Virus record (IMG/VR): IMGVR_UViG_2600255005_000007 | Span: 1 to 8,899 of that record | From: a virus | Lineage: Duplodnaviria > Heunggongvirae > Uroviricota > Caudoviricetes | Length of the DNA stretch: 8,899 nucleotides | Strand: one strand, 5' to 3' | Shown here: in pieces, positions 1-8,899 of the stretch | Position numbering within the stretch: position 1 is the stretch's first letter | How the letters are laid out: every line of letters starts with the position of its first letter | Notes under the pieces: model-generated | The model's database searches: none | The model's input: the letters and a program-made list of their open reading frames with translations, nothing else | Told to the model about the DNA's origin: nothing | Translations under genes and position numbers: made by a program

Positions 1-477
1 GTGATAAAGCGTGTTTTGCAGGCTGCGTTCGATGTCATCAACGCTGCGCCGCTGGCTGGCAGAGAGCGAGGCAATAAACGCTTCGGCTTTTTCCGGCGAC
101 TGCTGGCGATAAAGATTCGCCAGCCCGCGCACGGCGTTAGTGTTGCTACTGTCCATACGCAGCGTCTGCTGGTAATAGCGTTCAGCGGCGGGGTAATCTT
201 TGCGCGCCATCGCCACATCGCCCAGCCCCAGCACCGCATAGCTGTCGGCGTTATCGACATTGCGCGCCTGCTGGAACAGGCGTTCTGCCCGGTCGGGATT
301 ATTGGCTTTCAGCGCAGCATCGCCCTGCTGGATCGCCAGCCAGTAGCGATTCACCTTCAGCAGACTGTTCCATTTGTCGTTGTTGCTGCTGTGCGGATCC
401 AGCGCGAGGGCTTTTTCCAGATTCGCCACCGCATTAGCACGATCGCCATTCTGAGAATACGCCTGCCCCAGCGCCCC
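1..477 (-). pseudogene. bcsC: Internal fragment of cellulose synthase operon protein C (BcsC, TPR region). The N-terminal side is cut at 477/478; the gene continues past the window start.
   Basis: Reverse-complement translation of 477..1 reads GALGQAYSQNGDRANAVANLEKALALDPHSSNNDKWNSLLKVNRYWLAIQQGDAALKANNPDRAERLFQQARNVDNADSYAVLGLGDVAMARKDYPAAERYYQQTLRMDSSNTNAVRGLANLYRQQSPEKAEAFIASLSASQRRSVDDIERSLQN. I recognise this as the central TPR part of enterobacterial BcsC, nearly identical to my recollection of the E. coli protein. It is missing from the ORF track because it has no start or stop inside the window. Similarity ends abruptly at 477/478. Confidence 0.85.
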
Positions 478-2088
478 CGGAACGCGGCGAAAACATCAGA
501 GACGAATGCAGGTAACAGCGCGAAAGCGGCAGCTTCTTCAAAAACAGCCGCACAAAATGCAGCAACAGCGGCAGAACATTCAGAGACAAATGCCCGTGCG
601 TCAGAGGAAGCCTCCGCAGACAGTGAAGAGGCTTCCCGCCGTAATGCAGAGTCAGCCGCTGAAAATGCCGGAATCGCCACCACAAAAGCGCGGGAGGCCG
701 CAGCAGACGCAACAAAGGCCGGGCAGAAAAAGGATGAGGCTCTGTCGGCAGCGACACGAGCAGAAAAGGCGGCAGACCGCGCAGAAGCCGCAGCGGAAGT
801 GACTGCAGAGCCCTATGCGAATATAGTGCCGCCGCTGCCTGATGTATGGATACCGTTTAACGATACACTGGATATGATTACGGGGTTTTCGCCATCATAT
901 AAAAAGATTGTTATTGGTGACGATGAAATAACAATGCCAGGCGACAAGATTGTTAAGTTTAAACGTGCTTCAACAGCAACGTATATTAATAAGTCCGGCC
1001 AACTCAAGCTTGCTGAAGTTGATGAACCGCGATTTGAGCGCGATGGCTTATTGATTGAAGGACAGAGGACAAATTATCTGAGGAACTCAAATAAACCAGA
1101 CTCATGGACTGTTCATTCCGCACTGAATAAAACATTTGGCACTGATAAACAGGGGTTCAATTATGCCACGGTGACACCCACGGAAAGTATAGTGGGAACA
1201 ACAGGTGGCTATACTGTGCATGGTGTGGTTGCAGCAGACAGATTCCCGCTGGCAAGTGGTGAATGTTTCACTTTTTCGTGCCGGGTTAAAGGCGCTAAAG
1301 CACGATGCAGGTTAAGAGTTTCAGTTATTATTGGTGGAACAGATACATTCTCTGCTGACTCTTATCTTGATCTGGATACCCGGATCGCAACAGTAAGCGG
1401 TAATACATCCCTTATAACAGCCAAAGCTGAACAACAGGGCGAGTGGACCTACTATGAGGCCACTTATACAGCTAATACGGACATTGATACCGTTAACTGT
1501 GCTTTTTATATGACAAATAAAATAAGTAATGAGCCATTCTATGATGACTCAACATTAACCATGACGACGCCGCAAATTGAACTGGGCAATACGGCATCGT
1601 CATTTATTGTAACTACAATGCCAACAACACGCGCAAGTGATGTGGTTACTATCCCATCGCAGAATAACCTGTCAACACGGCCTTTTACGGTATTGTGCGA
1701 AGTAAGCAGGAACTGGAGTACACCGCCCAATGTTGCGCCAAGGATATTTGATGTTGGAGGGCACAGTATTGATGATAATTATTTATCGCTGGGGTTTGTT
1801 TCAACAGGAAAGATAAGCGCCAACGTAGGAATGGTTCAGCCACAAATTTCCTCAGATGGAGAAAGGTTCATTGTGGGTGTGAGAGCTAAATCTGATTTAT
1901 CAGTAAATGCAATATGCAGTGGTAATTATACAACAAACCTTAATGGTAAAATATTTGGAGTTACAGCAACATCGTACCGGTTTGGTGGGCAGACCGCAGC
2001 AGGAACGCGTCATTTGTTTGGACACATCAGAAATTTCAGAGTCTGGTTTAAAGAATTAAATGACAGGCAAATCAAGGAGGCAGTATGA
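478..2088 (+). CDS. Phage side tail fibre protein, 5'-truncated: Ala/Ser/Thr/Glu-rich shaft repeats followed by a distal receptor-binding region
   Basis: From 478 the frame reads RNAAKTSETNAGNSAKAAASSKTAAQNAATAAEHSETNARASEEA..., the low-complexity shaft repeat typical of lambdoid Stf-like fibres. A globular distal part follows, about 420 aa, ending ...TRHLFGHIRNFRVWFKELNDRQIKEAV. That tail resembles the usual end of LamG/ConA-like jelly-roll domains. The TGA stop at 2086-2088 overlaps the next ATG. There is no start codon of its own; the upstream open frame (1-477) is bcsC antisense. Confidence 0.8.
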   Translation, partial: RNAAKTSETNAGNSAKAAASSKTAAQNAATAAEHSETNARASEEASADSEEASRRNAESAAENAGIATTKAREAAADATKAGQKKDEALSAATRAEKAADRAEAAAEVTAEPYANIVPPLPDVWIPFNDTLDMITGFSPSYKKIVIGDDEITMPGDKIVKFKRASTATYINKSGQLKLAEVDEPRFERDGLLIEGQRTNYLRNSNKPDSWTVHSALNKTFGTDKQGFNYATVTPTESIVGTTGGYTVHGVVAADRFPLASGECFTFSCRVKGAKARCRLRVSVIIGGTDTFSADSYLDLDTRIATVSGNTSLITAKAEQQGEWTYYEATYTANTDIDTVNCAFYMTNKISNEPFYDDSTLTMTTPQIELGNTASSFIVTTMPTTRASDVVTIPSQNNLSTRPFTVLCEVSRNWSTPPNVAPRIFDVGGHSIDDNYLSLGFVSTGKISANVGMVQPQISSDGERFIVGVRAKSDLSVNAICSGNYTTNLNGKIFGVTATSYRFGGQTAAGTRHLFGHIRNFRVWFKELNDRQIKEAV

Positions 2089-2363
2089 AAGATTTAACTT
2101 TGAAATTTCCTGGTAACAGAGAGTTTAAATCCTTCCTGTCATCTCTTGACTGGGAGGAAGATGAAGACCTCCAGAATAAACTGTTAGTCGATGAAATTGG
2201 TTTCACCTACACAGAAACAGGGGTAACTGAAGAGGGAGAACCTGTCTGTATCCGGAATAACGGTTATTTTGTCAACATTCGCATTCTTGATGACTTGTTT
2301 GATGTTTCTGTATTCTCTGATTATGTCGTGGAGCTGGAAACACCGCTTCGGGAATGGAGCTGA
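2085..2363 (+). CDS. Small acidic protein (92 aa), translationally coupled to the tail fibre gene. Possibly a fibre chaperone or accessory protein; function unknown.
   Basis: ATGA start/stop overlap with the tail fibre gene. Strong SD (caAGGAGGcagtATG). Acidic composition (DWEEDEDL, TEEGEP). It does not match the classic Tfa sequence I know, so the function is inferred from position only. Confidence 0.6.
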   Translation: MKDLTLKFPGNREFKSFLSSLDWEEDEDLQNKLLVDEIGFTYTETGVTEEGEPVCIRNNGYFVNIRILDDLFDVSVFSDYVVELETPLREWS

Positions 2364-2375
2364 AAGGAGGAAATA

Positions 2376-2669
2376 ATGGATATAAGCCCCTTACTTCATG
2401 CACTTTGTGCTGTGGCTGCGCAGATACTGGTTGGTCTTTTTACCGGAAACTGGGCTTACGGAGCGATAGCCGGTTGTACGTTCTTCATTGCGCGTGAACA
2501 TACCCAGGCAGAATATCGCTGGATTGAAATGTTCGGGCATGGCAAGCGAATGAATATGCCGTGGTGGGGCGGATTTGATCCGCGCGCGTGGGATGTGGCA
2601 AGCCTGATGGATTTTGCTGTGCCGGTGGTGGCGTGTCTGCTGGTCTGGCTGTTGGTTAATCGTGGGTGA
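2376..2669 (+). CDS. Small integral membrane protein (97 aa, about 3 hydrophobic segments), prophage accessory or moron-like
   Basis: Strong SD (gaAAGGAGGaaataATG). Hydrophobic stretches are ISPLLHALCAVAAQILVGLFTG, AYGAIAGCTFFIA and LMDFAVPVVACLLVWLLV. It sits 12 nt after the previous stop. The 3' end lies next to the junction with the recombinase fragment, so the native C-terminus is uncertain. Confidence 0.6.
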   Translation: MDISPLLHALCAVAAQILVGLFTGNWAYGAIAGCTFFIAREHTQAEYRWIEMFGHGKRMNMPWWGGFDPRAWDVASLMDFAVPVVACLLVWLLVNRG

Positions 2670-2679
2670 AAAAAGGTGG

Positions 2680-3033
2680 GCTGTATATGCAACGGAGGAA
2701 GAAACCCGGGAGAAAGCGCGGATACAGAAACCGGGTGCCTGTCACATCTTCCGGCACTCGATGGCAACGCAGATGCTGGACAACGGCGCAGACACGCGGC
2801 ACATCCAGGCGATCCTCGGCCATGAGAAGCTGGAGACGACGCAGATCTACACGCGGGTAGCCATCGGTCACTTACAGGAAGTTCACGCGCTGACGCACCC
2901 GGAAGAGCAGGACGAGACGTGGACGGATCGGCACGTTGCGGATGCGGTGGCAGAGCCGCAGACGCGCCGGGAGCGTAATCACGCAGAGATGGAGCGGGCG
3001 CTGGTCAGCAGGAAACGCCGCCGGAGACGCTGA
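2680..3033 (+). pseudogene. C-terminal catalytic fragment of a tyrosine recombinase/integrase; the N-terminal two thirds are missing
   Basis: The translation contains ...KARIQKPGACHIFRHSMATQMLDNGADTRHIQAILGHEKLETTQIYTRVAIGHL. This gives the H-x-x-R box, the LGH box and the catalytic Tyr (IYTRV) of the XerC/D-phage integrase superfamily. The first catalytic Arg and the core-binding domain are absent. The upstream part of ORF 2614-3033 only overlaps the membrane-protein gene in another frame. The left boundary is approximate, about 2670-2700. Confidence 0.8.
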
Positions 3034-3110
3034 TGCAGGCCGGAAGCGTGATCATCGCCGGACTGCCTGAAAAGTTAGCGGGCGATCCCTGTAAGGCCGT
3101 GGGGTGAGGT

Positions 3111-3154
3111 GCAGGGCAGACAACCGCCTTCCCTGGCGGTTGACTGCCCCCTGC
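3111..3154. repeat. Imperfect inverted repeat / hairpin 1
   Basis: Perfect 8-bp core caaccgcc (3121-3128) / ggcggttg (3135-3142) with a 6-nt loop, ttccct. The outer arms gcagggcaga / actgccccctgc extend the pairing with one A-A mismatch and a 2-nt bulge. Confidence 0.7.
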
Positions 3155-3174
3155 CAGCGGAGTGCGCGGGGGTA

Positions 3175-3240
3175 AATGCCGTTCGCCCCGTGGAGGCAGG
3201 CGTGTCCCATGCGGCCACGGCGCACGGGGCAAACGTCATT
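3175..3240. repeat. Imperfect inverted repeat / hairpin 2
   Basis: The 18-nt arms aatgccgttcgccccgtg (3175-3192) and cacggggcaaacgtcatt (3223-3240) pair at 16 of 18 positions around a 30-nt loop. Confidence 0.7.
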
Positions 3241-3242
3241 CA

Positions 3243-3339
3243 ACATAATGCGGGGGATTATGCGCACTCTCGCCGGGTGGCAACGGCGGCGAACCCGACC
3301 CGCTGTGCGCGGCTCGTGTTCGCACAATCCGCATTATGT
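3243..3339. repeat. Imperfect inverted repeat / hairpin 3
   Basis: Perfect 11-bp outer stem acataatgcgg (3243-3253) / ccgcattatgt (3329-3339). After a GGG bulge, an inner stem attatgcgcac (3257-3267) pairs with gtgttcgcaat-type sequence (3318-3328) at 9 of 11 positions. The apical region is about 50 nt. Confidence 0.7.
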
Positions 3340-3975
3340 CTTGCGCCCCCGCGTTCAGCCCCTTAACCAGTGCCACGCGCAGCAGCTCGCTGGCGCTCGC
3401 TCCTGCCGTCTCAGCGGCGGTGTCCTTCCTCAGCGCCGCAGTCGCCGCCATCCCTGGCGGCTCCGGTGCCGTTCTGCGGCGGCGTCATCGTGTGGCAGTC
3501 AGTCAGAAAAGGGTGTCGGCCTGGCGGCCTCCGCTTGTAAGGGCTTTATGCCCGCCCGGCGTCGTCTGGCTGCGGCGGCTCGTGCCGCGCAAAAAGGCCG
3601 CGCGTCACTCGTTCCCGCCTCGCCAGCTTCCGCTGCCCGCCCCGGTCCGGTGTGGTCATGCAAAGGCCAGCTCCGGTCAGGCAGCGGTGCCACAGAGCGC
3701 CGTTCCGTCGCTTGCGGACTCTCTGCCGCCCGCACCCGCAGACCCCGCGCCGTGGCCCCGCCATGCCGCCGGAGGCGGCCTGGCGGCCCCCCGTCACGGG
3801 TTGCCGGAAACGGACTTAGTGGAAAGCGGAATGACAGGTTCGTGGCGGTGGTGATATGGTGAGCGGGCGTGAAAACGCGCGTCGGGAAAGCCGGGTTAAC
3901 GTGCTGTTAAATAATTAAAAGGTGATAGCCGTGAAGCCAGAAACGGCGCGGGCGGTAGCGTGTTAAAAAGTATGA

Positions 3976-4401
3976 CCCGCACCGGATCGTCCCGATGACC
4001 CGATAGGGCTGAGAGGCGGATTAAACTTATACCAATACGCGCCTAATCCAGTAAACTGGATCGATCCTTTGGGTTTGAAATGTGGGCAACCTGAATGGAC
4101 AAATCATGGATACAAACATTTTCCTCCAAAAAACAAATCATGGAAGGATATAATTAAATCAACAAAATCAGGCCCGGCAAAATATTCTCCAGATATTGAT
4201 ATTAAAACGTTGGAATACGATGTTTTTAATACAGGCACACCTGTTACGAACGGTAAACCATGGAAAGTAAAAGATATGGGAAAAGTTATTGGGGCCAGTG
4301 AGGGTAAAGAATCTCAATGGGTTCGAGTTGAACTTAGCGGTGGGACAATACATGGACATCCTATATCAATCGATGAATTCCGAAGGCTAACAACATCATG
4401 A
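3976..4401 (+). CDS. Orphan Rhs C-terminal toxin tip 1: core-end remnant plus a toxin domain of unrecognised family, about 110 aa, with no start codon of its own
   Basis: The open frame reads [49 protein letters not shown]...[27 protein letters not shown]. DPIGLxGGxNxYxYxxNPxxxxDPxGL is the hallmark boundary between the Rhs/YD core and its variable toxin tip. The 'start' in the ORF track (4069) is only the TTG encoding a Leu of DPLGL. Upstream, tatgacccg (YDP) sits in another frame, so the remnant is frameshifted. Confidence 0.8.
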
Positions 4402-4691
4402 ACATTGATTTCTTAGGAAAAAAAGGGAATATAGTTTTTAATGACTTCTCCCTGAAACAAAGCATCCCTCTTAATGAACAGCGAGATGAACTTAAGGAAG
4501 ATATGCTCCAGGTTGAATATCCTGGTGGGTATCTTTTGGATGTTGGGTGGCGACCATCTTTTGATATAAATGGGAAGTTTTATATTTGTTTAATAAAGGA
4601 TTTTGATTGGGATTATCCCATTTATAATGGTTCTGCGAAAGATATTGTCTCATTATTATTTGAAATTAACCAAGCTATAAATAAACTTTAA
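4398..4691 (+). CDS. Putative cognate immunity protein 1 (97 aa)
   Basis: ATGA overlap with the toxin stop. AT-rich. The small cytoplasmic-looking protein sits immediately 3' of an Rhs-CT, the canonical immunity position. A terminator hairpin follows. Confidence 0.65.
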
Positions 4692-4700
4692 ATAAACTTT

Positions 4701-4740
4701 AAAAAAACTGGGAAGAAAATTAAATCTTCCCGGCTTTTTA
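4701..4740. terminator. Bidirectional rho-independent terminator between immunity 1 and SymE-like copy A
   Basis: Stem ctgggaag (4708-4715) / cttcccgg (4726-4733), 8 bp including one G-U pair, with a 10-nt loop. It is flanked by an A7 run on the left (4701-4707) and T5 on the right (4735-4739). Confidence 0.7.
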
Positions 4741-5006
4741 TTATTTAACTCTCGTTCAGCACACTAAACATCCCGTTCCGCATCCCCTTAACCGCCTGTT
4801 TGACCTGGTAAAGTTCCCTGCGCAGTTCCTGTACTTCGTTGTTATCCGCTAGCAGGATCAGGCAACCTTCCGAGATCTTCACGGTAACGCCCGTGCCGAT
4901 CTCAAATCCCGCTTCTCTCAGCCATTTGGCGCTGATTTTGATCACCGGCGTGTCGCTTCGGTTGGGCAGATAGCCCACGGTACAGTGGCGCTGTGTTTTG
5001 GAAATG
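4719..5006. repeat. Direct repeat copy A (288 bp): right half of the terminator plus the SymE-like ORF
   Basis: Aligns base for base with 7311-7599, with 7 substitutions and 1 T-run indel. Identity ends sharply after ...gtgttttggaaatg. Confidence 0.9.
4745..4978 (-). CDS. SymE-family (AbrB/SpoVT-fold, type I toxin-like) protein, copy A, probably 5'-truncated
   Basis: The translation ...TVGYLPNRSDTPVIKISAKWLREAGFEIGTGVTVKISEGCLILLA... matches the SymE signature as I recall it from E. coli SymE ([48 protein letters not shown]). The only available start is the GTG that encodes the Val of TVGY, and it has no SD. The frame stays open upstream to a TAA with no start codon. Confidence 0.7.
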   Translation of the reverse strand: MGYLPNRSDTPVIKISAKWLREAGFEIGTGVTVKISEGCLILLADNNEVQELRRELYQVKQAVKGMRNGMFSVLNES

Positions 5007-5159
5007 ATATTTTTGTATTTAACCTGCTGATTAGATAGTAAAATAAACTTCGTGCAGATAGCTTACTTTGTCAGGGTGTGGCGGTAGCGTATGAACTATG
5101 ACGTGATGGTTTTAGTGATTTATAGACGAAACTGACAGTACGATCCGGACTTCGATTAG

Positions 5160-5621
5160 ATTGCGCGATTTGACCCGATAGGGCTGGCGGGGGGGCTGAA
5201 TCTTTATCAGTATGCGCCGAATCCGTTAAACTGGATCGATCCGCTTGGATTAAGTTGCTCTAGTGATGCAAAAAAATTATCTGGTAATTTAGGATCAGCA
5301 CCAAGTAGTCACTATCGACCACATCATATGGTTATGTCTAATTCCAGCGATGTGCGTATGCGGTGGTTACGTAGAAGGATGGATCGGTTAGGTATAGATA
5401 TAAACGATTCCAAAAATGGTGTATGGCTACCCAAAAACTCTGATTATCGGTTACCGGGGACAAAAGCTACTGCTCATGGTGGTGAAGGTGTACATGGAAA
5501 TGCATATAAACAACATGTGTGGGATACGTTGAAAAATGCAAGAACAAAAGCTGATTTTGAAGCAGGGCTTGCGCAACTTAAAGTAGAGCTAAGTACTGGC
5601 AAAACGTTTCCTGTCCAATAA
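5160..5621 (+). CDS. Orphan Rhs C-terminal toxin tip 2: HNH/EndoVII-superfamily AHH-type nuclease domain, no start codon of its own
   Basis: The open frame after TAG (5157-5159) reads [40 protein letters not shown]...[10 protein letters not shown]...[16 protein letters not shown]...[15 protein letters not shown]. The xHH dyad, the downstream NG-x-x-LP and the H-x-x-H-x-x-Y fit the AHH nuclease toxin family, here with PHH. The M at 5328 in the ORF track is internal, in the middle of the HH motif. Confidence 0.8.
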
Positions 5622-5634
5622 GGAGTATGATCAC

Positions 5635-6252
5635 ATGAAAGATTTTCTGAAAAGTTTATATGAAGATTACAATGGAAAGTATTCGGAACTGATAGAACAG
5701 ATGAACGGAGAAAAGGCTACTTGTAGATGGGGGTATGGTGTTATGCCTGCCTTCTCTATAGAACCTTATGCATCCGAGCTTTTAGGTCATAAACCGGGAC
5801 GAATGTTGAAAAATAACTCAATCGCAGGAGTAAATAAACAATGCTATTATGTTGATGAACAAAACAGGATAATAGAAGGAATTACATACGCCAGCCATCG
5901 TAAGAAAGATAATGAATGGATTGTGTATAGAAATTTTTATATTTACCAAGAAAATACCATTCTTGGGCTTTTGTATAGTAGTACATTTGAAGATAGTAAA
6001 AACACAGGATTGAATAAGATTGTATTTATAAGCATTGATAATAAATTAATAAATAATAAGTATACTTTCATGTATGATGGGGAGTATTCTGAGGTAGATT
6101 ATATTTATAATAAAGATAAAATAATAAAAATAGACCAAAGGGTATGGTCTTCGTTTTATTTTGAACGCACTTATCTGATAGAGTCAAATGATCCATTGAT
6201 TATTAATGAATACTTAGAAAATAGTGGGAACATCAGGATCTACCCTACTTAA
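5635..6252 (+). CDS. Putative cognate immunity protein 2 (205 aa)
   Basis: Good SD (taAGGAGtatgatcacATG) 13 nt after the toxin stop. Very AT-rich. Immunity position. I recognise no domain. Confidence 0.65.
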   Translation: MKDFLKSLYEDYNGKYSELIEQMNGEKATCRWGYGVMPAFSIEPYASELLGHKPGRMLKNNSIAGVNKQCYYVDEQNRIIEGITYASHRKKDNEWIVYRNFYIYQENTILGLLYSSTFEDSKNTGLNKIVFISIDNKLINNKYTFMYDGEYSEVDYIYNKDKIIKIDQRVWSSFYFERTYLIESNDPLIINEYLENSGNIRIYPT

Positions 6253-6345
6253 TTTATCAAAGTAAGAGACTAATATATGGACTATGATGCGGCTGTTTCA
6301 GGGATATGCGATTGAAGCCAGTAGTATGATCCTGCGATGGGGTAG

Positions 6346-6801
6346 ATTCACCGTCCTGATCCGATAGGGCTGGCGGGGGGAATAAACCTCTATGCTTATG
6401 CGCCGAATCCAGTAAACCACATTGATCCTCTTGGGCTATCTTGTGGAAAGGTTGGTAACGTTGAATATCGTAATTTTGAGCGTTCTCCGGGAATGTTTTC
6501 TCGGTTATTAAAGAATAAACGTGACTTTGATTATGTTGCCAGATATAACATCTCAAGATATAAAGCTACATTGAGAAAAAATAATCCGGATGGTTTTGGT
6601 AATATTAGCCATTATTTCGATGGTGTAGATGCAAAAGGAAATAAAGTCGTTATTGAGGTGGCGAATACAGGGCATAAATCTTCAAGCGGTGGTTTTGAGC
6701 CTCCACATATTAAAATTCAAATAAAAGACGCTGATAACAAAGTGATACATAATGCCAAATATTTTTTGGAAGATGATATATATAGAATTACGGGCAAATA
6801 A
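6346..6801 (+). CDS. Orphan Rhs C-terminal toxin tip 3: toxin domain of unrecognised family, about 125 aa, with no start codon of its own
   Basis: The open frame after TAG (6343-6345) reads [76 protein letters not shown]...PPHIKIQIKDADNKVIHNAKYFLEDDIYRITGK. It has the same core/toxin boundary motif. The M at 6493 in the ORF track is internal. Confidence 0.8.
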   Translation: MHRPDPIGLAGGINLYAYAPNPVNHIDPLGLSCGKVGNVEYRNFERSPGMFSRLLKNKRDFDYVARYNISRYKATLRKNNPDGFGNISHYFDGVDAKGNKVVIEVANTGHKSSSGGFEPPHIKIQIKDADNKVIHNAKYFLEDDIYRITGK

Positions 6802-7260
6802 ATGAAAAATATTAGAGAGTTAAATAATGCAGAATTCTCCGGGCTTATTAACAATGCTTTACCATTCTTACATATTAATCCTATAAGCGAAGCTGTTTGT
6901 ATTCATGCAGAAGCTTATAAAAGTGGTATTGATGTTAACTATATCCGTTGCAACGTTGACTGGGAGGGGTTTTCTTCTTTAACTGAAGCGTTGGAAACGT
7001 TATACCATGAATTATTTAAAGATGGTATTCCATCAGGCGAATTGTTGTTTTTTTACCCGTTTGATAGAACAAAGAAAGGGAATTATGGTGTTATACTGGA
7101 ATCATCTCAGCTATTAGATTTCTTAATAAAAGAGCATTTGAAGATTTATCCTGAATGTTTTAATGTAGAAATGTGTAGCTTCGGTTTTTATTTTATAGAT
7201 CACGAAATATTTTACGGCATGGAACATCCTGATTTTTTATATAGTTTCTGTGTAAGATAA
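6802..7260 (+). CDS. Putative cognate immunity protein 3 (152 aa)
   Basis: The ATG directly abuts the toxin TAA (taaATG), implying translational coupling. AT-rich. Immunity position. A terminator hairpin follows. Confidence 0.65.
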   Translation: MKNIRELNNAEFSGLINNALPFLHINPISEAVCIHAEAYKSGIDVNYIRCNVDWEGFSSLTEALETLYHELFKDGIPSGELLFFYPFDRTKKGNYGVILESSQLLDFLIKEHLKIYPECFNVEMCSFGFYFIDHEIFYGMEHPDFLYSFCVR

Positions 7261-7297
7261 TTAATAAAGTGAGGAGTATATTTCTCTTTCTTAATCG

Positions 7298-7332
7298 CCG
7301 GGAAAGGTAGATTAAATCTTCCCGGCTTTTTT
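7298..7332 (+). terminator. Rho-independent terminator after immunity 3, homologous to the one at 4701-4740
   Basis: Stem ccgggaa (7298-7304) / ttcccgg (7319-7325), followed by gc and T6 (7327-7332). Confidence 0.7.
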
Positions 7333-7599
7333 ATTATTTAACGTTCGTTCAGCACACTAAACATCCCGTCCCGCATCCCCTTAACAGCCTGTTTAACCTG
7401 ATAAAGTTCCCTGCGCAGTTCCTGTACTTCGTTGTTATCCGCTAGCAGGATCAGGCAACCTTCCGAGATCTTCACGGTAACGCCCGTGCCGATCTCAAAT
7501 CCCGCTTCTCTCAGCCATTTGGCGCTGATTTTGATCACCGGCGTGTCGCTGCGGTTGGGCAGATAGCCCACGGTACAGTGGCGCTGTGTTTTGGAAATG
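7311..7599. repeat. Direct repeat copy B (289 bp)
   Basis: See copy A. The repeat ends at the same ...ggaaatg, after which the primase-like frame begins. Confidence 0.9.
7338..7571 (-). CDS. SymE-family protein, copy B, probably 5'-truncated. The ORF track extends it to 7619.
   Basis: Same sequence as copy A with 2 amino-acid differences (N/D, and terminal S/R). The 16 extra N-terminal codons in the track (7572-7619) begin with a GTG that lies outside the repeat, on the antisense of the primase fragment, and has no SD. I treat that extension as fortuitous. Confidence 0.7.
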   Translation of the reverse strand: MGYLPNRSDTPVIKISAKWLREAGFEIGTGVTVKISEGCLILLADNNEVQELRRELYQVKQAVKGMRDGMFSVLNER

Positions 7600-8824
7600 G
7601 TGGGCCGCACTGCTGGCACACGGCGTCAGGCAGGTACTGATCGCCTACGACAACGATCCGGCGGGCAATGAGGCGGCGGTGAAACTGGCTTCTTCCTTAG
7701 CCGCTTCCGGGATCGCCACGTTCCGCGTACTGTTCCCGGCGGGCATGGATGCGAACGGTTATCTGTGCAGTGTGGCAGAGCCGGAACAGGCGTTCAGTCT
7801 GTTGCTGGATGGCGCGGTGCCCATGAGTGACCTGGCCGATGCGGAGAGTATCGCGCCGCAGGCCAGCGCGGAGCCTGCACACCTGACTTCATTAGCTGCC
7901 GGGGTTGCGGTCTTACCCGCAGCCGCCGCGCCTGCACCGGGCGTCAGCGTGGAAACCCTGGCCGATGGCGAACTGATGGTAGCCTTACCCGGCGAACGCT
8001 GGACTATCAGGGGCGTAAGCCGCAAACCGAACGTCGCCGCGATGAAGGTCAATGCGCAGGTGCTGGACACCAACAGCGGCGTGGTGTTCGCTGATGCGGT
8101 GGATATGATGAGCGCCCGCAGCCGTTCCGGTTATGCGCGGGCCGCAGCGGCAGAGCTTGGGCTTGCCGAAGGCGACCTGCGCCGTTCGCTGGGTAAGGTG
8201 CTGCTGGCGCTGGAGCACTGGCAGGCGGCACCGGAGCCGGAGAGCGTCGCCCCGGAGATGACGCCGGAAGATCGGGAGGCGGCGCTGGATCTGCTGCGCG
8301 ACGAGTGTCTTGCCGGGCGCATCGCTTCTGATATGGCGGCGTGTGGCGTGGTGGGTGAGTCCACCAACCTGACGGCGGCGTATCTGGCGGCGGTGTCACG
8401 CAAACTGGAGCGCCCGCTTGCCGTTCTCATCCAGTCGTCGAGCGCGGCGGGTAAGTCCAGCTTAATGGATGCGGTGCTCAATCTGATCCCGCCAGAGGAA
8501 CGGCTGCAATACAGCGCCATGACCGGGCAGAGCCTGTTCTACCTCGGCGAAACCAACCTGCAACACAAGATCCTCGCCATCGCAGAAGAAGAAGGTGTGC
8601 GCCAGGCGGCGTATGCGCTGAAACTGTTGCAATCAGACGGGGAACTGACCATCGCCAGTACGGGCAAGGACGACGCCAGCGGCAACCTGGTCACCAAACA
8701 GTACACGGTGAAAGGCCCGGTGATGCTGATGCTGACCACCACGGCGATCGACGTCGATGAAGAACTGTTAAACCGCTGCCTGGTGCTGACGGTGAACGAG
8801 TCGCGGGAGCAGACGGAGGCCGAA
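7598..8824 (+). pseudogene. Internal fragment of a Toprim / P-loop NTPase primase-helicase-like protein of an integrative or conjugative element, truncated at both ends
   Basis: VLIAYDNDPAGNEAAVKLA...FRVLFPAGMDANGYL looks like the distal Toprim DxD region. Later, LIQSSSAAGKSSLMDAV is Walker A-like and HKILAIAEEEG is Walker B-like. The codon usage is GC-rich and coding-like, and all minus-strand ORFs here are shadows. There is no native start because the frame enters from the SymE repeat. At the 3' end the reading frame runs into the rrn leader and stops there fortuitously. Confidence 0.7.
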
Positions 8825-8899
8825 CTGCTCTTTAACAATTTATCAGACAATCTGTGTGGGCACTCGAAGATACGGATTCTTAACGTCCTCGGACGATAA
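8824..8899 (+). promoter_or_regulatory. rRNA operon leader including the boxA antitermination element; 16S rRNA expected just downstream of the window
   Basis: actgctctttaacaatttatcagacaatctgtgtgggcactcgaagatacggattcttaacgtc is identical to my recollection of the E. coli rrn leader downstream of P2. boxA tgctctttaacaa is at 8826-8838. The following small hairpin differs in a compensatory way (cgtcctcggacg versus cgtcgcaagacg), consistent with a natural rrn variant. Confidence 0.8.

Follow-up and report, generated by a model that had tools for sequence, protein, structure and literature searches.

In all likelihood, the odd gene neighborhood of the window, by which we mean the whole 8,899-nucleotide stretch analyzed here, is an artefact of assembly and not biology. 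Four of the five junctions flagged in it are very probably points at which separate short-read contigs were abutted without gap markers in a draft pseudomolecule. The fifth, at 3996/3997, belongs to an Rhs toxin-gene array, in which it is an ordinary boundary that has been conserved.

At 100% identity, the window corresponds to bases 4,231,089-4,239,987 of AEMF01000001.1 (GCA_000208585.2). This 2011 draft of Escherichia sp. TW11588, cryptic clade IV, is one record of 4.46 Mb. In our excerpt of this source record (L003), the window occupies positions 4367-13265, and the source record has no N letters at the joins. The window consists of the following parts.

1-477, minus strand: bcsC fragment from within the gene (TPR region, with TPR Pfam matches); identity to E. 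coli bcsC about 94%
478-2707, plus strand: lambdoid prophage piece holding the 3' 1.6 kb of stf (5' end missing), orf92, orf97, and 38 bp beyond
2085-2363, plus strand: orf92, within the lambdoid prophage piece
2376-2669, plus strand: orf97, within the lambdoid prophage piece
2708-3033, plus strand: xerC-type tyrosine recombinase gene, its 3' end only, from about codon 258 of 366 to the stop
3034-3996, no strand: conserved GC-rich (67%) non-coding spacer, natively 3' of xerC, with about 91% identity both among unit copies and with E. coli
3997-4691, plus strand: orphan Rhs tip 1, a core-end remnant (DPIGL...DPLGL) and C-terminal toxin domain (to 4401), with a putative immunity gene at 4398-4691
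4745-5006, minus strand: SymE-family toxin gene remnant, copy A, with a SymE_toxin Pfam match; a 97% direct repeat with 7328-7599
5172-6252, plus strand: orphan Rhs tip 2, a core-end remnant and AHH nuclease toxin domain (to 5621, Pfam), with a 205-aa putative immunity gene at 5635-6252
6358-7260, plus strand: orphan Rhs tip 3, a core-end remnant and toxin domain without a known family (to 6801), with a 152-aa putative immunity gene at 6802-7260
7338-7601, minus strand: SymE gene, copy B, its 5' end cut by a join; the native form is 97 aa and is followed by an HTH gene
7602-8821, plus strand: internal fragment of a primase gene, about codons 289-695 of a 983-aa gene; the diverged, copy-2-specific part, with Toprim Pfam matches
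8822-8899, plus strand: start of a collapsed rrn repeat piece, a leader with boxA leading into a complete 16S gene just beyond the window

Four joins are peculiar to the TW11588 record

A sequence-only reading of the window had described five clean junctions between truncated modules of different origin. Four of them exist in the sequence, within a few base pairs of where that reading put them. The first was placed correctly at 477/478, with the bcsC alignment running to 481 and the stf alignment starting at 476. The second is present but lies at 2707/2708 rather than at about 2670-2700, the phage block extending to 2707 and xerC homology beginning at 2706. The third, given as 7599/7600, we place at 7601/7602 (the SymE direct repeat reaches 7599, and collinearity with an intact relative reaches 7602), and the fourth, given as about 8824, at 8821/8822-8824 (identity to the primase stops at 8821, and that to the rrn leader begins at 8824). 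The sharp contrasts in base composition between modules are likewise real. As that reading had also stated, the four joins carry no IS ends, target-site duplications, or att-like repeats; tRNA genes are absent as well, and no direct or inverted repeats flank 477, 2707, 7601, or 8821. Having found no inverted repeats, duplicated target sites, att-type repeats, or tRNA target, we rejected mobile-element insertion and site-specific integration as explanations of these joins.

The pieces themselves are ordinary sequences that have been cut short. The bcsC fragment is part of a longer bcsC piece of 1,872 bp (SRC 8606-10477), which the source record cuts short on either side and which is 92% identical to bcsC of locus L019. 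Positions 476-2707 are 98.8% identical to Lambda_2E9 and other lambdoid phages. The xerC remnant matches the Phage_integrase Pfam profile at positions 120-169 of 172, and 773 bp of its 5' end are missing at the 2707/2708 join; in E. ruysiae OPT1704 (L004) the full 366-aa gene occupies 6299-7399, and the window picks up at L004 7072. The rrn leader and 16S gene are 99.4% identical to E. coli (16S at L017 11385-12926).

We found the joins nowhere else. Two ORFs that span them, of 695 and 437 aa, occurred in one contig only when the whole collection was searched, whereas the ordinary putative immunity proteins of the window recurred exactly in 46 (205 aa) and 50 (152 aa) blocks. None of 5,426 complete E. 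coli genomes placed bcsC next to stf or primase next to an rrn leader.

The relatives show the native arrangement directly. In OPT1704, window positions 2706-7602 are matched at 99.98% identity and 7602-8821 at 100% (L004 13465-14684), with an intact xerC at the left and, between the two matching blocks, 1,496 bp comprising the 5' end of SymE, the HTH gene, and the 5' end of the primase. Collinearity with the window stops at L004 11968, where OPT1704 instead carries a 97-aa SymE (L004 11704-11997) and then HTH and primase. Block 2706-7602 is also 99.1-99.7% identical in three further assemblies; loci L005, L006, and L008 hold it complete, and L007, whose contig begins inside the block, holds 4011-7602. 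In L005-L007, SymE runs on into an intact HTH gene and primase at the point where the window has its 7601/7602 join. Counting OPT1704, five assemblies thus share this DNA, at 99-100% identity. The presence of the same arrangement in related isolates had been proposed as a sign that a junction is genuine; it is absent for the four joins and present for 3900-3970, which is thus genuine.

Several pieces end at repeats

Short-read and overlap assemblers stop contigs where repeats start and collapse near-identical repeat copies, which would explain why the pieces of the window end at repeat edges. These edges would be those of a duplicated SymE-HTH-primase-XerC unit, of prophage tail-fibre repeats, and of the 7-copy rrn operon. 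A 129-bp exact repeat, shared by the two unit copies, lies 3 bp ahead of the start of block 2706-7602, and the last base of the block is the first of a 165-bp exact repeat; for a randomly chosen point, the chance of falling within 4 bp of an exact-repeat edge of this kind is p = 0.023. The phage block ends where the 3' end of the tail-fibre-assembly gene tfa begins, a sequence found in a median of 2 and a maximum of 8 places per genome, and the last piece starts in the rrn leader, which E. coli genomes carry at a median of 7 places. The coincidence with a repeat edge is clear for four piece ends (L004 7072, L004 11968, the tfa 3' end, and the rrn leader). For the 5' end of stf it is circumstantial, the stf sequence upstream of the phage block occurring in up to 14 places per genome. 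Both ends of the primase piece fall at a change in copy-to-copy identity (from about 97% to 90%) and not at the edge of a long exact repeat, and no repeat could be tied to either end of the bcsC fragment, both of which lie in a normally single-copy gene.

What was retained and what was lost also differ in similarity between unit copies, retained pieces being about 90% identical and missing or displaced ones about 97%. The primase fragment shows 90.3% identity compared with about 97% on both flanks, and the missing 1,496-bp segment is 96.9% identical. Two pieces have their native continuations inverted a few kilobases upstream. That of the primase piece begins at exactly the next base (L004 14685) but sits inverted 9 kb upstream and is a mosaic of copy-1 and copy-2 alleles, switching inside exact repeats; that of the phage block (the tfa 3' end and sitDCBA) is inverted at SRC 4358->1 and abuts exactly. 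The same pattern continues outside the window, with 8 joins in 28.9 kb. Past the window, the complete 16S gene and 56 bp of ITS are followed by a 2.3-kb internal fragment of a YadA adhesin in place of ITS-23S-5S, and the chromosomal backbone resumes 8 bp past the 5S position.

From these observations we infer that the pieces originated as separately assembled contigs, which a person or a scaffolding tool would have laid end to end without N spacers, some of them inverted. Abutting pieces in this way would yield clean joins of truncated genes lacking mobile-element scars, and long chimeric ORFs crossing the joins. The record resembles concatenations of repeat-broken short-read contigs in its repeat-edge ends, collapsed or missing near-identical repeats, lone 16S piece, arbitrary orientations, lack of biological scars, and joins absent from independent assemblies. 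It differs in looking contiguous, having no N spacers, and in having had chimeric proteins of 695 and 437 aa called from it.

Alternatively, the joins could be real, the TW11588 region having been scrambled by repeated illegitimate recombination, deletion, and inversion around the Rhs island, the prophage, and rrnA. Illegitimate recombination would give clean joins with slight microhomology, and the parent alignments do overlap by 0-6 bp (at 476-481 the overlap reaches 6 bp, somewhat more than would usually be expected by chance). At two points, L004 14684|14685 and the phage CCC|CGTTGC point, the paired breaks are reciprocal to the exact base, and blocks 2706-7602 and 7602-8821 keep the order and orientation of the native sequence, which a simple deletion of 1,496 bp would likewise produce. 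However, at least 8 independent events in 29 kb would be needed, in orientations that fit no single inversion, and their outcome would have to include pieces from inside bcsC, stf, primase, and the YadA adhesin as well as an rrn operon in which 16S is followed by an adhesin fragment. The breaks match repeat edges and changes in copy-to-copy identity, features that affect an assembler but are of no consequence for illegitimate recombination; one displaced piece is a mosaic of two repeat copies; and none of the four joins was found in any other assembly. We therefore regard real rearrangement as very unlikely. A degraded recombination hotspot, one of three options that the sequence-only reading had offered, is similarly unsupported, given breaks at assembly-type repeat edges and pieces that include internal fragments of single genes.

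A second artefact, mis-joining within the assembler itself (k-mer graph or overlap chimeras) instead of later concatenation of finished contigs, would account equally well for joins that are confined to one record and for relatives in which the arrangement is intact, and the allele-mosaic piece suggests that the assembler did cross between repeat copies. Such mis-joins need a shared k-mer, though, and the joined sequences are unrelated, with overlaps of 0-6 bp that are too short for k-mer graph mis-joins. A single 4.46-Mb contig with 8 joins in 29 kb and no N is better fitted by deliberate concatenation, and we consider joining inside the assembler highly improbable.

An engineered or cloned construct, or cloning chimeras, would also show clean, scarless joins of unrelated fragments, and an engineered construct had been another of the options raised. 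Yet the sequence shows no sign of a vector, marker, linker, or restriction-site pattern, all pieces are natural Escherichia chromosomal or prophage DNA, and the window lies inside a 4.46-Mb genome record beside the normal backbone genes mobB, mobA, yihD, and dsbA, making this origin extremely improbable. The remaining option, a chimeric contig, is the one favored for the four joins: the evidence supports a chimeric pseudomolecule of separately assembled pieces.

Consequences for use of the record

Neighborhood, operon, or island inferences drawn across 477/478, 2707/2708, 7601/7602, or 8821/8822 are invalid. The same applies to at least four additional joins immediately beyond the window, and the record contains no N gaps to alert its users. 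Two chimeric proteins are already in protein collections. The 695-aa ORF begins antisense to bcsC and continues into stf; the 437-aa ORF begins antisense to symE and passes through the primase fragment into the rrn leader. Only positions 2706-7602 can be used for neighborhood arguments.

Block 2706-7602 carries a native Rhs orphan-tip array

Block 2706-7602 is biologically coherent, forming part of a T6SS-associated Rhs orphan-tip array. The claim of an illegitimate join at about 3900-3970 fails here, since 2706-7602 is one collinear block in relatives. The GC drop near 3900 falls within the conserved spacer, and the module boundary, between spacer and rhs core-end remnant at 3996/3997, falls on the identical nucleotide in five of five xerC-linked units from E. 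ruysiae and E. coli. Further native boundaries, which had not been listed, lie at 5006/5007, 5171, and 6357. The spacer has indels of 1, 2, and 11 bp, its variable sites are spread 47/43/46 over codon positions, and an Rfam search of it gave no match. A comparable GC-rich stretch lies downstream of xerC in other genera too.

Three 81-nt rhs core-end remnants occur, at 3996, 5171, and 6357, and each heads a tip: the remnant encodes DPxGL...DPxGL, the toxin domain after it varies, and a small ORF (97, 205, and 152 aa) that putatively confers immunity lies downstream. Tip 1 was assigned from the 81-nt repeat family (D2), its translation, and ORFs, and its module is attached to a full-length rhs in E. 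coli (L002 6001-6922). The SymE copy at 4745-4978 scores 43.9 bits against a Pfam cut-off of 29 (SymE_toxin), and both SymE copies in the window are shortened, at 77 aa as called versus 97-109 aa in relatives. The window itself shows no full-length rhs gene, but such genes lie upstream of the array in relatives, as a 1,550-aa Rhs in OPT1704 and as vgrG, a DcrB-related gene, and rhs in E. coli.

Orphan toxin/immunity arrays of Rhs, arising from C-terminal displacement, were described by Jackson et al. (2009, PMC2935791). Positions 3997-7260 resemble those arrays in holding three dissociated tips, each with an approximately 81-nt core-end remnant and a small putative immunity gene, and in lying, in relatives, downstream of a full-length vgrG-linked rhs. 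They differ in that the tips are interleaved with a repeated SymE-HTH-primase-XerC unit and the GC-rich spacer. For bee-gut bacteria, integrase-like genes have been noted in the vicinity of Rhs loci (Steele et al. 2017, PMC5727410). Like those loci and integrons, the array links a tyrosine recombinase gene to cassettes in series, which have a short conserved boundary sequence in common. Unlike them, each unit here has its own predicted recombinase together with primase, HTH, and SymE genes, and the boundary common to the cassettes is made of coding sequence from the target gene, namely the rhs core end.

We also observed that the Rhs-tip/SymE/HTH/primase/XerC unit is conserved in six genera. 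In the literature searched, we found no description of this unit, with or without the spacer.

The core-end motif lies 860-1,360 bp past xerC at 18 loci in six genera, and Xenorhabdus has the same unit gene order. On a tentative reading, 3996/3997 may be the right attachment junction of a widespread integrative element composed of Rhs toxin tip, immunity gene, SymE, HTH, primase, XerC, and GC-rich spacer. Such an element would insert by site-specific recombination at the conserved 3' end of the rhs core, fusing its own toxin tip to the Rhs protein already resident there and leaving the previous one orphaned downstream. A circular 8,758-bp record, H31, is ambiguous with respect to this possibility, which we hold to be somewhat doubtful. 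If true, the integrative element would provide the integrase and the circular intermediate that are missing from the C-terminal displacement model.

Composition and origin of the window

All 8,899 bases of the window are 100% identical to positions 4,231,089-4,239,987 of AEMF01000001.1 (locus L003, 4367-13265), a single record of 4,463,584 bp in assembly GCA_000208585.2. The AEMF accession belongs to Escherichia sp. TW11588, a cryptic clade IV strain from soil (strain table, PMC7716201). We split the window into blocks by BLAST against complete E. coli genomes, plasmids, and phages, and the Pfam matches (TPR repeats, the Phage_integrase C terminus, AHH nuclease, SymE_toxin, and Toprim) agreed with these modules. 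There were no Ns in the source-record loci that we examined.

Blocks of the window identified by BLAST
13-481, minus strand: bcsC, about 94% identity
476-2707: lambdoid side-tail-fiber (stf) block, 98.8% identity
2706-8821: xerC, Rhs tips, SymE, and primase, a neighborhood found repeatedly in E. coli
about 8824-8899: rrn leader

The sequence-only reading had proposed five junctions lacking mobile-element scars. Four of these are in the sequence, within a few bases of the places proposed, at 477/478 (bcsC-stf), 2707/2708 (stf block-xerC), 7601/7602 (symE-primase), and 8821/8822-8824 (primase-rrn leader), while the fifth, at about 3900-3970, is no join. The contrasts in base composition between segments were borne out, as was the lack of scars: neither direct or inverted repeat pairs nor tRNA genes flank any of the four joins.

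The four joins are unique to the source record. The two open reading frames that cross joins (1-2088, 695 aa, and 7586-8899, 437 aa) were each found on one contig of the whole collection, AEMF01000001.1; for comparison, the window's ordinary immunity proteins occur in 46 and 50 blocks of that collection. Among complete genomes of E. coli (n = 5,426), none had bcsC beside stf or primase beside an rrn leader. The exact 40-mer spanning 477/478 had no match in a collection of species-representative genomes. The species is represented there by Escherichia ruysiae OPT1704, so the source record itself is apparently absent, and the result speaks for the representatives in that collection only. Gene callers have turned two of the joins into long chimeric "proteins" (695 and 437 aa), which are stored in public protein collections.

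An intact arrangement in E. ruysiae and displaced partners in the source record

The arrangement is intact in E. ruysiae OPT1704 (GCA_902498915.1, locus L004), whose gene order begins with Rhs, imm, SymE(-), HTH(-), primase (983 aa), XerC (366 aa), and a spacer. Three orphan tips (orphan Rhs toxin ends) follow, then SymE(-), HTH(-), primase, XerC, and a second spacer, and finally a tip, SymE, and yafV/ivy/fadE. The unit from SymE to spacer is present as copies 1 and 2. The corresponding block of the window begins within xerC (L004 7072) and ends within symE (L004 11968); the next 1,496 bp are absent, and the window then picks up 1,220 bp of primase at 100% identity to L004 13465-14684. None of the four joins is shared with this relative.

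Natively, the primase piece runs straight on into L004 14685, the base that follows its end. In the source record, this continuation is instead found about 9 kb upstream in inverted orientation, abutting the bcsC fragment at its other end. This displaced piece is a mosaic: of 162 columns at which the copies differ, 142 follow copy 2 and 18 follow copy 1, with the copy-1 alleles grouped at 14692-14889 and 15995-15998 and the switches adjoining exact repeats of 97 and 765 bp. The phage block behaves similarly. In phage Lambda_2E9 it continues as the tfa 3' end and then sitDCBA; in the source record these are inverted and further upstream, and their end meets the end of the phage block to the base. 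BLAST did not reveal this abutment because Lambda_2E9 lacks about 260 bp that are present in TW11588, and it was direct reading of the ends that showed it. As an observation in its own right, the iron/manganese transporter operon sitABCD lies directly 3' of the tail-fiber genes as cargo in some lambdoid phages (Lambda_2E9 locus L018, 3592-9735), and TW11588 seems to be organized in this way too, a tfa 3' remnant intervening (L016 1-4358).

Past the window's end, the rrn leader leads to a complete 16S gene, and the piece ends 56 bp into the ITS. In place of ITS-23S-5S there are 2,299 bp from the interior of a YadA-like adhesin gene, and the usual backbone (mobB, mobA, yihD, dsbA) returns 8 bp past the 5S position. 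The rrnA locus of this record holds the 16S piece alone. Altogether, 28.9 kb of the source record contained 8 joins of this kind.

Four further joins, probably artifactual, within 10 kb of the window (source-record coordinates)
4358/4359: sitD-distal sequence to SymE
8605/8606: primase to bcsC
20566/20567: 16S plus 56 bp to YadA fragment
22864/22865: YadA fragment to 5S-distal region

The remainder of bcsC and the collapsed SymE-HTH-primase piece were not located within the roughly 29 kb of the TW11588 record examined. We also considered a single inversion or reciprocal events as the source of the piece order, but the orientations of the pieces do not fit.

Breaks at repeat edges

We took repeat edges from an alignment of the two OPT1704 unit copies. 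Position 7072 of L004 lies 3 bp past a 129-bp exact repeat, and at position 11968 a 165-bp exact repeat begins (P = 0.023 for a random position being equally near such an edge). The segments retained in the window are the diverged ones, with copy-to-copy identities of 90.3% and 90.9%, and those skipped or displaced have identities of 96.9% and 97.5%. The end of the phage block coincides exactly with the start of the conserved 3' portion of a tail-fiber-assembly gene, a multicopy sequence (2 places per genome at the median and as many as 8), and the stf sequence directly upstream of the block's 5' end is likewise multicopy (up to 14 places per genome). The last piece starts at the rrn leader, a sequence found at a median of 7 places per genome.

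We conclude that the record is very probably a pseudomolecule, built from contigs that broke at repeats and were then put end to end with nothing to mark the gaps; the separate contigs, their deliberate concatenation, and the tool that ordered them are inferred. Such abutments would give the four joins of the window. Of the options raised by the sequence-only reading, the chimeric contig is supported by joins restricted to one record, native order in OPT1704, and breaks at repeat edges, and there was no sign of an engineered construct. Some features sit less easily with abutted contigs: the ends of the primase piece match a shift in copy identity without a long exact repeat there, the blocks overlap by 6 bp at 476-481, and both ends of the bcsC fragment are left unexplained.

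Alternatively, the region may truly be scrambled in the strain. This would require at least 8 events, which must leave behind pieces from inside genes and an interrupted rrn operon while striking, for no biological reason, positions that matter only to assemblers, and we consider it very improbable. Mis-joins made inside the assembler seem slightly less probable again, as the joined sequences have just 0 to 6 bp in common; because of these short overlaps, we rejected k-mer-graph mis-joins.

A native boundary within the Rhs block

Window positions 2706-7602 form a coherent stretch of an Rhs locus linked to T6SS. They are collinear with OPT1704, with 1 mismatch in 4,897 bp, and 99.1-99.7% identical to three more independent assemblies, so the arrangement at 3900-3970, unlike that at the four joins, recurs in related isolates. 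The real module boundary there is 3996/3997, at the identical nucleotide in 5 of 5 xerC-linked units whose downstream toxins differ; in E. coli, likewise, xerC is followed by a GC-rich spacer and an rhs core-end remnant. The block contains three orphan tips interleaved with SymE genes, each headed by an 81-nt core-end remnant (DPxGL...DPxGL) and followed by a small putative immunity gene. In intact genomes, tips alternate with the unit SymE(-), HTH(-), primase, XerC, and spacer.

Spacer and SymE-associated features
Window 3034-3996: spacer after xerC, about 950 bp, 67% GC in a genome of about 50% GC
L004 16857-17802; L001 12916-13873; L002 (E. coli FDAARGOS_1373) 11891-12804 and 18658-19616: spacer homologues
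Window 4575-5008 and 7057-7601, plus strand: subthreshold Ssr1/isrA matches, opposite/over both SymE copies

The spacer is about 91% conserved. Its indels measure 1, 2, and 11 bp, its variable sites number 47/43/46 across the codon positions, and on this pattern it looks noncoding. We did not accept its long open reading frames (228 and 172 aa) as genes, given indels that are not multiples of three and substitutions with no codon-position bias. An Rfam search of the spacer gave no match. A comparably GC-rich stretch (58-68% GC) lies 3' of xerC even in low-GC Xenorhabdus and Photorhabdus, and candidate roles are an att region, an RNA, or regulatory DNA.

The SymE copies gave subthreshold Rfam matches to Ssr1 (Shigella small RNA 1; 260-265 bits versus a gathering score of 820) and isrA (32-34 bits versus 51). 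By analogy with SymR for symE, these may mark antisense regulatory RNA. Similarity between the SymE copies stops at 5006 (5006/5007) and 7599, 3 bp before the large-unit copies turn identical (L004 11965-11968), which suggests that the native unit ends within the 5' portion of symE. Loss of a unit backbone seems to have left SymE copy A (4745-5006) as a residue.

A XerC-linked unit in six genera

Scanning species-representative genomes with XerC yielded 18 loci in which a same-strand Rhs core-end motif lay 860-1,360 bp 3' of xerC, from Escherichia, Citrobacter, Edaphovirga, Pectobacterium, Photorhabdus, and Xenorhabdus (lowest XerC identity, 57%). A second core-end motif often lay one unit (about 6.2-7.5 kb) upstream, and the gene order was the same in Xenorhabdus japonica. 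The conserved unit, between rhs core-end remnants, reads Rhs toxin tip, immunity, SymE(-), HTH(-), primase, XerC, and GC-rich spacer, and it is often in tandem in Rhs loci of these six enterobacterial genera. We found no description of the Rhs-tip/SymE/HTH/primase/XerC unit in the literature searched; integrase-like genes have been noted near Rhs loci of bee-gut bacteria (Steele et al. 2017, PMC5727410).

Places where the unit or its tip module was seen
Window 2706-7602; L004 1-19000; L001; L002; L043 27-10000; loci L022-L048: conserved unit
Window 3997-4928 versus L002 6001-6922: tip/immunity/SymE module

In E. ruysiae the tip/immunity/SymE module lies behind XerC as an orphan, and in E. coli FDAARGOS_1373 it belongs to the full-length rhs; in the reverse case, the main-rhs tip of OPT1704 (L004 1311) is an orphan behind XerC in FDAARGOS_1373 (L002 12805). 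Because placement is reciprocal in these two genomes, tips appear to shift between expressed and orphan positions, with exchange always at core-end sequence. Judged from gene arrangement, the pattern would fit C-terminal displacement (Jackson et al.) in an integrase-borne form; an equally good account of the tip exchanges is homologous recombination at the core end.

A circular 8,758-bp "plasmid" record from Shigella flexneri (NZ_CP055112.1; L021, 1-8758) is exactly one unit period, holding HTH, SymE, an immunity gene, ISEc1, xerC, and a primase over the origin. Such a record could represent the unit in excised, circular form, or else a tandem repeat of the chromosome that was wrongly closed into a circle during assembly, and the record itself does not separate the two.

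The feature originally flagged is one native module boundary together with what is very probably an assembly artifact, and the practical use of this result is caution over AEMF01000001.1 and the chimeric proteins derived from it.
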